From Escherichia phage vB-EcoP-XT18, in sequence record OR757434.1: a stretch of DNA of 64,000 bases. The stretch is one strand, 5' to 3'. The position numbers and the translations under genes are program-made. Below the pieces are notes generated by a model. That model did not search any database. It was not told the DNA's origin and saw nothing but the letters and a program-made list of their open reading frames with translations. Of the stretch, positions 17,090 to 19,335 are shown in pieces (position 1 is the first letter of the stretch; every line of letters starts with the position of its first letter).

Positions 17090-17234
17090 ATGTAGGGTTG
17101 ACCTGCCTCTTTTAGAGAGTGCTCAAGGAAAGGCACTAGCCACTACGTTGGAGTGGTATCAGGACCAGTACACAGAATGTGCTGCTAATCACAATGGATT
17201 GTTAGAAGCTCTGAAAGAGCGTGGAGTAGAGTGA
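16974..17234 (+). CDS. o-spanin (Rz1-like lipoprotein), overlapped architecture
   Basis: starts inside the i-spanin gene in another frame; lipoprotein-like signal ending TSAC; Pro-rich with conserved Cys. Confidence 0.5.
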   Translation: MRKLNQFFIMSALVMTTSACSTSDSSRQSMPLPTNLKAECRVDLPLLESAQGKALATTLEWYQDQYTECAANHNGLLEALKERGVE

Positions 17235-17674
17235 TGGCTATTGTTTTCGAAGGTAAAGCCAATGTGTTCACAGTGGACGCTCAAACAGTAACTTGCACAG
17301 TAAACCTTGTAGGTGTAATGGGTGCAGGAGTAGCCAAGGAGTATAAAAGAAGATACCCTGAAGCTTTTGAAAGGTATAAGGTTGCTTGCGACTCTGGATT
17401 CCAGATCGGACAACTTCTTCTACAGAGGTTGAATGATGGGAGACTGGGATTGTGTTTTCCAACTAAGAAGCATTGGAGAAACGGTTCTGAGGTAGAGTGG
17501 ATAGAGCAAGGCTTACAAAAGCTATTACTTACCTACAAAGACAAGGGAATCACCTCTCTAGCCATAACACCTCTGGGTTGTAGCAATGGAGGACTAGATT
17601 ACCAATCTCAGGTAAGACCTTTAATGTTTAAATACCTAAATCAGATGGACATACCTGTCTATATCTGTTTGTAA
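17231..17674 (+). CDS. macro-domain-like protein (ADP-ribose binding or processing)
   Basis: VD...[12 protein letters not shown] and [15 protein letters not shown] resemble the macro-domain motifs VNAAN..GGGGV and SVAFP.ISTG.YG. Confidence 0.45.
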
Positions 17675-17693
17675 TAGCCAACAACAAGGAAAG

Positions 17694-18341
17694 ATGATGG
17701 CGAAGAAAACAACACCTACAAGATATCGAATTCATGGAATCCCTATTAAATACATCTCAAACTATGAAGAGTTTTACAGAGTGAACTGGAAAGTGGTTCA
17801 CAAGTTCTTCATGTACGATATCAGAGATTACCATGAAGCAGAAGATGTGGCACAGGAAGTGCTCTTGAACGCTTGGAGATTTGTCTTCGCTAAGCAGGAT
17901 GAGAGAGTCCTAGAGGACGAGAAAGACCAAGAGCATATGACTTATCGAGTCAAGAACATTATCTGGTCTATACGCTCAAATAGGCAGACTGTAGGAGACC
18001 GTCGTATCTACTCTATTCCAGAGGCTGATATGTTCCGTACTCCTGATATGGTTGATAGTCCTTTAGAGATTGCTATGGATAAGCAAGACTCTGTTGGTGA
18101 CCCATTCATGGAGTCCCGTATCTTCTATTTCTTCCAAGATTTAAGTGATACGATGGATACTCAGAAGTTAGCTAATATGTTCTCGATGATTTTCTTGGGT
18201 ATCCCCCATGATCACATCCAGAAAACTATTGGCATGTCACATGGAACTTTCTACCGTCGTTATGCAGAGTTAAAAGATCTGTATGAATACGTGGTAGAGA
18301 AGCACTTTGATAAAGAAGAATTTCAAGGATTGATTACATGA
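17694..18341 (+). CDS. phage sigma factor (ECF/sigma-70 family)
   Basis: region 2-like [15 protein letters not shown] and region 4-like [20 protein letters not shown]. Confidence 0.7.
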
Positions 18342-18730
18342 AAGTGATAATCGCAGGAAGCCGGTCGATAGACTGGCATTCTTTTACTCAGATGTGGGCT
18401 TTACTTCCAGAAGAAATCCCTAAGCTCATTTCAGAAGTAGTATCAGGTGGTGCAAGAGGTCCAGACCTTCACGGAGAAACTGTTGCTAAGCATAACGATA
18501 TCCCAATTAAACGTTTCATCCCTTCGTGGAATACTCTCGGCAAAAAGGCTGGGATACTTCGAAACGTAGACATGGGTGAGTATTCAGATGCAGTTATAGT
18601 CTTCTGGGATGGAGAGTCAAGAGGTTCTATGCACATGTTTGAGTATATGAAGAGTAAGAGTAAACCAGCAATCCTCCTTACTAAGAAGGGAGATAAAGCA
18701 GATATGGAAATCACTGGAGAGTGGAAATGA
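18338..18730 (+). CDS. SLOG/DprA-like Rossmann-fold protein
   Basis: [17 protein letters not shown] and [14 protein letters not shown] match the DprA/LOG-like pattern. Confidence 0.5.
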
Positions 18731-19335
18731 GTAATGAGCCTAAACCTTTAGTAGTAATTCTTAATGGGCCTCCGGGTTGTGGTAAGGATACGATAGCTGA
18801 GGAGTGGTTACTAAAATCCCACATTGCGTCTTATTCTCGTTATATTAAATCATTTAAAGAGCCTATGTACAAAGTCGCCTCCGCAGCATTAGGTTTGAAC
18901 TTGGAGGATTTTCTGGAGTTTTATAAAGATCGAAACTGGAAAGAAAAACCTAGGCCTGAATGGGGAGGTAGGTCTGTCAGAGATTTAATGATTTCCACAA
19001 GTGAAGATTACTTAAAACCTATGTTTGGTAAGAACTACATGGGAACCCAAGCAGTAAATAGTATCAAGTCAGAAGGAAGGAATCACAATGATGTTATCCT
19101 GTTTACTGATGGTGGGTTTGAAGCAGAGGTGAGAGAGCTAGAAAAGTCTTTCAATGTAGTAGTAGTTCAAGTTCACAGGAATGGTTGTGATTTTTCTGGA
19201 GATTCTAGGAATTATATTGAAGGGGAGCAGTTAGAAACTTGTACATTATCCAACAATCGAACTATTTCGGAAGCTCGGTACTACTTGGATTGGATTATAG
19301 CTGAAAATAGAGATAAAGTTTATGGAAGAAGTTAA
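18721..19335 (+). CDS. P-loop kinase, probably deoxynucleoside monophosphate kinase
   Basis: Walker A NGPPGCGKDT; resembles T4 gp1 dNMP kinase by eye. Confidence 0.55.
   Translation: MEMSNEPKPLVVILNGPPGCGKDTIAEEWLLKSHIASYSRYIKSFKEPMYKVASAALGLNLEDFLEFYKDRNWKEKPRPEWGGRSVRDLMISTSEDYLKPMFGKNYMGTQAVNSIKSEGRNHNDVILFTDGGFEAEVRELEKSFNVVVVQVHRNGCDFSGDSRNYIEGEQLETCTLSNNRTISEARYYLDWIIAENRDKVYGRS

Follow-up and report, generated by a model that had tools for sequence, protein, structure and literature searches.

The question raised by the DNA between positions 17,231 and 19,335 of a 64,000-nucleotide stretch of Escherichia phage vB-EcoP-XT18 (sequence record OR757434.1; the whole stretch is called the window here) is whether three genes that flank a phage sigma factor gene work together. 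They encode a macrodomain protein (called macro below), a protein of the SLOG superfamily and a P-loop protein resembling deoxynucleoside monophosphate (dNMP) kinases, and the original prediction was that they could form an anti-defence module, one that for example reverses ADP-ribosylation of DNA or protein, rather than serve plain nucleotide metabolism. Judging by its sequence, the window is from a phiEco32-like E. coli podophage of the genus Kuravirus, Gordonclarkvirinae; over 3.2 kb around the locus its identity is 98.8% to Escherichia phage vB-EcoP-XT32 and about 90% to phiEco32. The gene order is the same as that of phiEco32 genes 40-33, the genes in question being homologues of phiEco32 genes 37 to 34, and the interval opens at the earliest possible start of the macro open reading frame (ORF) and closes with the kinase stop codon. 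The co-linearity that had been predicted was confirmed in both coordinates and order: the macro, sigma, SLOG and P-loop kinase genes all lie on the plus strand and the 5'-3' exonuclease gene comes next. The explanation of the whole locus that we favour, and consider fairly probable, is that it has a conserved backbone and three exchangeable accessory genes, and that macro is an orphan DarG2-type antitoxin.

By homology and predicted fold, macro is a member of the DarG2 clade in an orphan antitoxin form. It matched the Pfam family Macro at 36.6 bits (cut-off 22), and when its sequence was searched against solved structures it retrieved Mycobacterium tuberculosis DarG (E 1e-26), Thermus aquaticus DarG (4e-24) and the Thermosipho DarTG fusion, while TARG1 was matched at E 0.2 only. 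The AlphaFold model of macro had a mean predicted local distance difference test score (pLDDT) of 96.1, and its best Foldseek match was T. aquaticus DarG with ADP-ribose (PDB 5m3e) with a template modelling (TM) score of 0.93, followed by M. tuberculosis DarG and Thermosipho DarTG and later by TARG1; the top four matches were all DarG or DarTG and 211 macrodomain structures in the PDB matched at E<=1e-3. The profile searches and the macro structure prediction that had been proposed as checks returned the expected folds and not unrelated ones, and the call of a macrodomain is borne out. The DarG models were matched over one part of their length, the PADLOC DarG model at E 4e-44 over profile positions 6-142 of 329 and the NCBIfam model antitoxin_DarG (NF048014) at 141 bits and 3.9e-41 over positions 6-144 of 338. 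The score of 141 bits is below the 250-bit cut-off of NF048014 for a full-length DarG2 and the C-terminal DarT-binding domain is absent. Since the DarG models were covered over their N-terminal macro half only, the window protein is the enzymatic half of DarG2 without the half that binds DarT. Macro is 41% identical (E 4e-36) to AdfM, which is gp104 of phage PhiKZ. Its catalytic residues, Asn24 and Lys78 by numbering from the ATG (N25 and K79 if the GTG at 17231 is taken as the start), align with N23 and K78 of AdfM and with N22 and K80 of T. aquaticus DarG and are invariant in 30 homologues. Homologues from jumbo phages were the next-best phage matches behind those of kuraviruses and Chaseviridae.

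When a profile of the kuravirus macro family was run against viral contigs, 33 long and 44 short stand-alone proteins were found. DarT (PF14487) was the immediate neighbour of 21 of the 33 long proteins and of none of the 44 short stand-alone ones in these viral contigs, and two cellular members of the clade, P0032 and P0035, which are 46-47% identical to macro and have a C-terminal extension, lie in operons with DarT; the nearest relatives of macro in cells are thus neighbours of DarT. The window macro is of the stand-alone kind, its neighbours being the o-spanin and sigma genes with no adjoining DarT. The 21 long matches, in which a full-length DarG lies beside DarT, are on IMG/VR contigs (L103-L179), and the presence of such pairs on contigs classed as viral suggests that DarTG2 operons themselves are carried by phage or prophage-like elements. 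The database labels 'phosphatase' and 'Appr-1-p processing' for macro were corrected to DarG-type macrodomain.

It has been shown that DarT2 ADP-ribosylates thymidine on single-stranded DNA (ssDNA), which blocks phage replication, and that DarG2 undoes the modification (PMC11825919). DarTG2 is native to the host species, since it is found in the enteropathogenic E. coli (EPEC) strain E2348/69 (PMC12255303). AdfM, the stand-alone DarG2-like macrodomain of PhiKZ, with homologues in chimalliviruses (Morgan et al. 2026), takes off the ADP-ribose that DarT2 has put on DNA and counters the toxicity of DarT2, and without it PhiKZ does not grow on hosts with DarTG2 (PMC13309987). Macro is, very probably, an orphan antitoxin of the AdfM type directed at DarTG2, its enzymatic activity and the protection of the phage being predicted from what AdfM does in PhiKZ. 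In the mechanism that we propose, host DarT2 would ADP-ribosylate thymidines on single-stranded phage DNA during replication, macro would, most likely via its conserved Asn and Lys, hydrolyse the bond between ADP-ribose and thymine, and with a replicable template restored the phage would grow on E. coli that carries DarTG2. What this analysis shows for macro is its homology and fold, its catalytic residues, the linkage of its relatives in cells to DarT and its pattern of presence and absence among phages.

The two proteins, macro and AdfM, are both stand-alone DarG2-like macrodomains of about 150 amino acids (aa) from lytic phages and have in common the catalytic Asn and Lys and the GVMGAG and FPTK-x-x-W motifs. 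Unlike AdfM, macro is from a 77-kb podovirus without a phage nucleus, so that no nuclear import is involved, it sits in a middle operon between spanin and sigma genes, and within one genus it comes and goes as a cassette of 463 bp, with copies that are 81% identical in Chaseviridae; moreover, the activity of AdfM has been demonstrated (PMC13309987) whereas macro is known from its sequence and predicted fold. From the DarG2 proteins of T. aquaticus, M. tuberculosis and EPEC, whose fold and active site it has, macro differs in being without the C-terminal DarT-binding domain and without an adjoining DarT, and we read it as a phage counter-defence protein whereas DarG2 serves self-protection in the cell. 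A further parallel is AdfN (Johannesman et al. 2025, PMC11825919), in which, too, a phage keeps only the enzymatic antitoxin fold and erases ADP-ribosylation from DNA; AdfN, however, has a NADAR fold and not a macro fold, acts on guanine and not thymine, and counters DarTG1 and not DarTG2.

The distribution of the macro gene is that of a mobile cassette. Of the phage records, 98 have a gp36-type sigma factor and 43 have macro (identity of 80% or more), the 43 being 40 kuravirus-size genomes (of the 98 with the sigma factor) and three Chaseviridae-size records of about 54 kb. The latter copies, which are 81-82% identical, are from the Carltongylesvirus phage DE15 (two records) and from TH37. 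In vB_EcoM_DE15 the gene (L006:5004-5444, 81% identical as protein) stands alone among small early genes beside the gene of a single-stranded DNA-binding protein (SSB), and no sigma, SLOG or kinase gene is near it. A macro that is 81% identical in an unrelated Chaseviridae phage of about 54 kb points to horizontal transfer between families of E. coli phages. At the DNA level, alignment showed that NJ01 and Bas92, two kuraviruses without macro in which the o-spanin stop overlaps the sigma start directly, lack exactly 463 bp (17234-17696), and the cassette is flanked by a 7-bp direct repeat, TGATGGC, at 17232-17238 and 17695-17701. Among the kuraviruses of the BASEL collection Bas90 and Bas91 are macro-positive and Bas92 and Bas93 are macro-negative; DarTG was outside the set of defence systems tried on these kuraviruses in the BASEL paper. 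With these four phages and the pair XT32 and XT73, macro-positive and macro-negative phages are available in culture collections and the main prediction is directly testable.

The window proteins were compared, slot by slot, with those of the relatives that we fetched. In the window, XT32 and phiEco32, macro and SLOG are present and the kinase slot holds the P-loop gene; KM01 is the same except that its SLOG gene is frameshifted. XT73, which has the sewage source and host of XT32 and a macro that is 100% identical, has no SLOG gene and an 89-aa DUF3310 protein in the kinase slot. NJ01 is without macro and has SLOG and a 176-aa DUF3310 protein; an 81.6-kb metagenomic relative likewise has SLOG, a DUF3310 protein and no macro; Bas92 has neither macro nor SLOG and a DUF3310 protein; and SU7, whose sigma factor is 80% identical, has neither macro nor SLOG and a P-loop gene in the kinase slot. 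The sigma factor and the exonuclease were present in every relative compared, the sigma factor being 98-100% identical in XT73, NJ01, Bas92 and KM01. The spanins, the sigma factor gp36 and the 5'-3' exonuclease thus form a conserved backbone, in which the exonuclease is the downstream anchor of the variable slot. The locus is the distal end of the phiEco32-like cluster of middle genes for replication, nucleotide metabolism and the sigma factor, and the best reading of SLOG and the kinase is that they are accessory genes of that cluster, each independent of the other. The assortment of the genes, the transfer of macro alone, the swaps in the kinase slot and the neighbours of SLOG all speak against a single anti-defence module made up of the three, and the original interpretation is supported only in part. 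What survives of the predicted anti-defence module is macro, which as an AdfM homologue fits reversal of DNA ADP-ribosylation, and what does not is the unity of three genes that assort independently.

The SLOG protein scored 27.8 bits against Pfam YAcAr (PF10686), just under the cut-off of 28.2; the domain is carried by most of 120 homologues listed out of 404 found, at 45-58% identity, and phrog_289 was matched at E 4e-25. Its conserved motifs are AGSR, SGGArGxD, RN and WDGxSxG, the SLOG-type loop that follows strand 1 is conserved too, and residues A6, G7, R9, S36, G37, A39, G41, D43, R75, N76, D91, S94 and G96 are invariant in 40 sequences. We are confident that it is a Rossmannoid protein with a YAcAr/DprA/YpsA-like fold. 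The SLOG fold and motifs of the predicted SLOG/DprA-like protein were therefore found but the full architecture of DprA was not, as there is no PF02481 match, the protein is a 130-aa core only and the profile-to-PDB match to DprA was at E 0.01; compared to the YAcAr/DUF2493 and the DprA/YpsA/ShosA SLOG proteins, the window protein is a core without the extra domains of DprA. Searches of solved structures with the SLOG sequence, singly or as a profile, gave marginal matches only, NCBIfam and PADLOC gave nothing, and a literature search on DUF2493, YAcAr and PF10686 found no functional study and no demonstrated activity for any PF10686 member; a YAcAr domain is fused to a Dda-like helicase in HelB of ICP1. 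The database names for this protein, 'putative GTP-binding protein', 'chromosome segregation protein' and 'DNA processing protein', are conflicting and unsupported, and the label 'GTP-binding protein' for gp35 was ruled out since there is no P-loop or G motif and the fold is that of SLOG. In the RefSeq record of NJ01 an intact ORF for the 130-aa SLOG is unannotated, and in KM01 the frameshift splits the gene into two ORFs (L013:4108-4498).

The company that SLOG genes keep is informative. In 72 non-kuravirus viral contigs their immediate neighbours were ThyX in 10, DNA polymerase A in 6, 5'-3' exonuclease in 4 and MazG in 3, besides ribonucleotide reductase (RNR), NrdD, dCMP deaminase, uracil-DNA glycosylase (UDG) and HD proteins, and within 3 kb of SLOG in 78 non-kuravirus viral loci there was a 5'-3' exonuclease gene in 13 and a DUF3310 gene in 8. 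SLOG is predicted to be a Rossmannoid protein that binds phosphate, nucleotide or ssDNA and it travels mostly with replication and nucleotide-metabolism genes; its predicted role is most likely that of an accessory factor for nucleotide processing or ssDNA handling and not that of an obligate partner of the macrodomain.

In the kinase the Walker A P-loop GPPGCGKDT is invariant, and the protein matched phrog_139, 'deoxynucleoside monophosphate kinase', at E 1e-41, which phage T5 Dnk matched at E 1.4e-51; the predicted dNMP-kinase-like P-loop protein is upheld by the loop and by this common PHROG. In the T5 sequence record Dnk is annotated as converting dNMPs to deoxynucleoside diphosphates (dNDPs). 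NCBIfam and PADLOC returned nothing for the kinase. The allele in the window is rare, a 99.5% identical one being present only in XT32 and the versions in phiEco32 and other kuraviruses being about 67% identical, and it is without the N-terminal extension of about 95 aa of phiEco32 gp34. Its synonymous divergence (dS) from phiEco32 is 1.31 compared to 0.30-0.47 in the flanking genes, that is three- to four-fold higher, which indicates allelic replacement. The slot itself is occupied in different phages by a P-loop kinase of 198-202 aa, by a 297-aa version with the N-terminal extension or by a DUF3310 protein of 89 or 176 aa. The DUF3310 (PF11753) proteins are above the Pfam cut-off, and PF11753 is present too in T7 gp1.7 (196 aa, much longer than the 89-aa occupants), an annotated nucleotide kinase; NJ01_044, one of the DUF3310 proteins, also matches phrog_236 'nucleotide kinase'. 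A direct BLASTP comparison of T7 gp1.7 and NJ01_044 found no pairwise similarity, so that the link is through the common Pfam and PHROG families only. The label 'dNMP kinase' on some of the slot proteins was corrected, these being DUF3310 proteins. The N-terminal extension of phiEco32 gp34 and the DUF3310 proteins both have the motif PAL..MVGG.HY.P, and from the sequences this common motif suggests a recombination scar.

Between sigma and exonuclease there seems to be a position at which genes of nucleotide-kinase type can replace one another, their functional equivalence being suggested by their families, and the swapping of such genes points to ordinary nucleotide supply. As a kinase like T5 Dnk, the P-loop protein would feed dNMPs into the deoxynucleoside triphosphate (dNTP) pool of the phage, and the DUF3310 proteins would supply a gp1.7-type activity in sister phages. 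SLOG and the kinase, on this evidence, read as separate, exchangeable genes of replication or nucleotide metabolism.

Several points weigh against the reading that we favour. A literature search found no paper that ties Kuravirus or phiEco32 gp37 to DarTG or to a macrodomain, and the anti-DarTG2 role of any kuravirus macrodomain is one that we infer. Macro is 34-41% identical to the characterised DarG and AdfM, so that its substrate specificity could differ. At the DNA level the macro gene had zero matches in 5,426 E. coli genomes, which also rules out a recent capture from the host chromosome. For the kinase, the profile comparison with T5 Dnk by hhalign gave a probability of 95% with about 50 N-terminal columns aligned only, the similarity being confined to the P-loop region, and neither its sequence nor its profile matched any solved structure beyond the P-loop. 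There are also signs that macro and SLOG can be associated and may be coupled in function to some degree. A 131-kb contig (IMG/VR 3300008144_000003, L036:3001-3801) encodes a 266-aa fusion of a YAcAr SLOG and a DarG-type macrodomain, the latter 37% identical to the window macro and with the FPTK motif kept, which adjoins an RNase H1-like gene; and a SLOG-superfamily gene (DprA, YAcAr twice, YpsA) lies within 5 kb of at least 4 of the 44 orphan macros, a neighbour count that, like the others for SLOG and macro, has no formal background control and no correction for phylogeny.

These signs also argue for the original prediction of one anti-defence module, taken here as centred on ADP-ribose and NAD in accordance with the model of Iyer et al. 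2022. In such a module macro would clear ADP-ribose adducts or signals, SLOG would bind or cleave nucleotides derived from ADP-ribose such as isomers of cyclic ADP-ribose (cADPR), and the kinase would re-phosphorylate the product. Besides the fusion and the SLOG genes near orphan macros, the module gains from the co-linearity and translational coupling of the genes in the window, from NADAR and NAPRTase among the few annotated neighbours of stand-alone DarG-type macros, and from a published survey that reported Macro-SLOG-NADAR co-occurrence and fusions of SLOG with guanylate kinase (PMC9503650). The module is nevertheless unlikely, because near-identical phages have macro without SLOG or the P-loop kinase and SLOG without macro, macro alone was transferred to Chaseviridae, ThyX, polymerase and exonuclease genes dominate the neighbours of SLOG, a domain of the gp1.7 type can take the place of the kinase, and the SLOG and kinase proteins have no PADLOC match. 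Moreover, a match to the DarG-type macro profile within 3 kb of SLOG was found in only 1 of 78 non-kuravirus viral loci, that one being the fusion, and a P-loop kinase within 5 kb of macro in none of 78 non-kuravirus macro loci. The co-occurrence of macro with SLOG, which Iyer et al. 2022 had already proposed, is seen in the one fusion and near some orphan macros, was not found in the other SLOG loci and is not conserved within kuraviruses; the association seems to exist but to be weak and the exception, and the kinase shows no sign of belonging. A narrower version, in which SLOG and macro are a two-part anti-DarT system at the replication fork with parts that can also work alone, strikes us as improbable to the same degree. 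In it SLOG, as a DprA-like binder of ssDNA or ADP-ribose, could bring the glycohydrolase to its ADP-ribosylated ssDNA substrate or could alternatively handle the released ADP-ribose, and it draws on the fusion, on the three SLOG families near orphan macros and on the published fusions with helicase, nuclease and guanylate kinase.

Other activities can be considered for macro alone. TARG1-class macrodomains act on protein and RNA adducts. It might be a housekeeping ADP-ribose-1''-phosphate phosphatase or O-acetyl-ADP-ribose deacetylase that clears small-molecule by-products and has no role against immunity, which is what the GenBank and PHROG labels imply, and phosphatases of the Poa1p type do appear lower in the fold list, with marginal sequence matches at E about 1. 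We hold this to be very unlikely: macro falls in the DarG clade by both sequence and fold, with an E-value about 25 orders of magnitude better than for TARG1 or Poa1p, its cellular relatives are partners of DarT, an equally similar homologue acts on ADP-ribosylated DNA (PMC13309987), and more than half of the close relatives do without the gene, a better fit to an accessory host-range gene. The slimmest chance we give to a macro that takes ADP-ribose off protein or RNA, such as RNA polymerase or transcripts that an ADP-ribosyltransferase of the host or the phage has modified. This would explain the position directly upstream of sigma; macro and the sigma gene are neighbours, the 3' end of macro may contain a promoter of the sigma-70 type, and the TARG1 class is the next-best structural class to macro. 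The sigma factor, however, is 98.6-100% identical in relatives from which macro is absent and its function is thus independent of macro, the Chaseviridae copy adjoins an SSB gene and is not near any sigma factor gene, the 50 kb inspected in the well-annotated relative Bas90 contain no annotated ADP-ribosyltransferase, and DarG-type macrodomains are described as DNA-specific (PMC13309987).

The features of the locus are given in the table. The macro ATG overlaps the o-spanin stop (TGATG) and has GGAG 8 nt upstream, a 22-nt spacer separates macro from sigma, and sigma/SLOG and SLOG/kinase overlap by ATGA. All genes are under purifying selection, dN/dS being 0.04 for macro, 0.06-0.16 for SLOG and 0.19 for the kinase. 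The gp36-type sigma factor is an already known protein (PMC12276001).

Table. Features of the macro-sigma-SLOG-kinase locus, in window coordinates except for the last line
Feature	Position	Strand	Remark
gp36-dependent middle/late promoter element TAATGTATA	15868..15876	+	exact consensus match; equivalent of phiEco32 P40
i-spanin gene	16715-17089		
o-spanin (Rz1-like) gene	16875..17234	+	embedded in i-spanin gene and extends past it; phrog_1152 Rz-like spanin, phrog_2425
Macro cassette limits	17232..17701	+	from DNA alignment and sequence
Stand-alone DarG2-type macrodomain, 146 aa	17234..17674	+	homologue of phiEco32 gp37 and PhiKZ AdfM
Candidate sigma-70-type promoter, TGGACA-18 nt-TGTAAT	17646..17675	+	macro 3' end, just upstream of sigma; found by eye
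Phage sigma factor	17697..18341	+	orthologue of phiEco32 gp36, 99.5% identical; core gene
SLOG-superfamily protein, 130 aa	18338..18730	+	YAcAr/DUF2493 family; homologue of phiEco32 gp35
P-loop nucleotide-kinase-like protein, 202 aa	18727..19335	+	corresponds to kinase domain of phiEco32 gp34
5'-3' exonuclease / flap endonuclease	19322..20140	+	phiEco32 gp33 homologue; phrog_107 E 6e-64, weak Pfam 5_3_exonuc_N
Kinase-slot occupants in relatives	L001:6728-7621, L003:3534-4064, L004:3145-3414, L012:4108-4377		

It has been reported that the gp36-dependent promoters of phiEco32 lie upstream of genes 6, 13, 26, 40, 58 and 68, that the cluster is of the middle class, and that a sigma-70 promoter inside gene 37 is predicted to serve gene 36 (PMC8948821). 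Five sites in the window match the gp36 consensus tAATGTAtA exactly, and those at 15868 (+) and 26261 (-, gene-26 homologue) agree with the mapped phiEco32 P40 and P26. The gene-40 homologue, the first gene in the transcription unit of the macro locus, has the P40-type element 59 nt upstream of it, and timing of the middle class suits an enzyme that acts on replicating ssDNA. A scan for consensus sigma-70 promoters reported none inside the macro gene; the TGGACA/TGTAAT pair in its 3' end might, on the letters of the DNA, serve as a sigma-70-type promoter, which we put forward weakly.

The P40 element is within a near-palindrome, GTAATGTATA-C-TATACATAAC (window 15787-15887), and a further exact inverted copy of the gp36 motif is found 61 nt upstream, at 15796-15805; the motif is thus on both strands of a 334-bp intergenic region, where there is no minus-strand gene. 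A strong hairpin like that of an intrinsic terminator, AGCCACC-TTCG-GGTGGCT followed by TTTTTT, is found at 16703-16720 just after the gene-40 homologue and upstream of the spanin, macro and sigma genes, and it may attenuate read-through from P40. An Rfam scan of 13000-23000 matched no family, and the sole tRNA that a tRNA scan found in the window is at 61854, distant from the locus. The region is flanked by two HNH-type endonuclease genes (Pfam HNH_3 and HNH) at 14471-14953 and 21391-21756; an ORF at 20332-20733 has no significant match to Pfam HNH, and in relatives the homologous genes bear the label 'HNH endonuclease' or 'terminase small subunit'. The spanin region of KM01 is interrupted by a homing endonuclease gene (L013:2332-2790). 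A 212-aa calcineurin-like phosphoesterase gene at 14963-15601 is present in XT32 and XT73 too, is shorter in Bas90 and KM01, and is absent from the matching stretch of phiEco32, which has small hypothetical genes instead.

For the databases, the locus calls for SLOG in place of 'GTP-binding' and 'chromosome segregation', for a DarG-type macrodomain in place of 'phosphatase' and for DUF3310 in place of some 'dNMP kinase' entries. Counter-defence against DarTG by orphan antitoxins is a recent subject, AdfN dating from 2025 and AdfM from 2026, and for AdfM it has been demonstrated only in nucleus-forming jumbo phages. What is very probably new here is an AdfM-type protein in another phage group, in the form of a mobile cassette, the kind of protein itself having been recently described. 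If our reading is true, AdfM-type counter-defence would be independent of a phage nucleus, and a small anti-DarTG2 cassette would circulate between unrelated families of E. coli phages. Macro may then add to the resistance to defence systems and the differences in host range that have been noted in Gordonclarkvirinae, phages that are being isolated as therapy against pathogenic E. coli, and it is in this that the relevance of the finding would lie.

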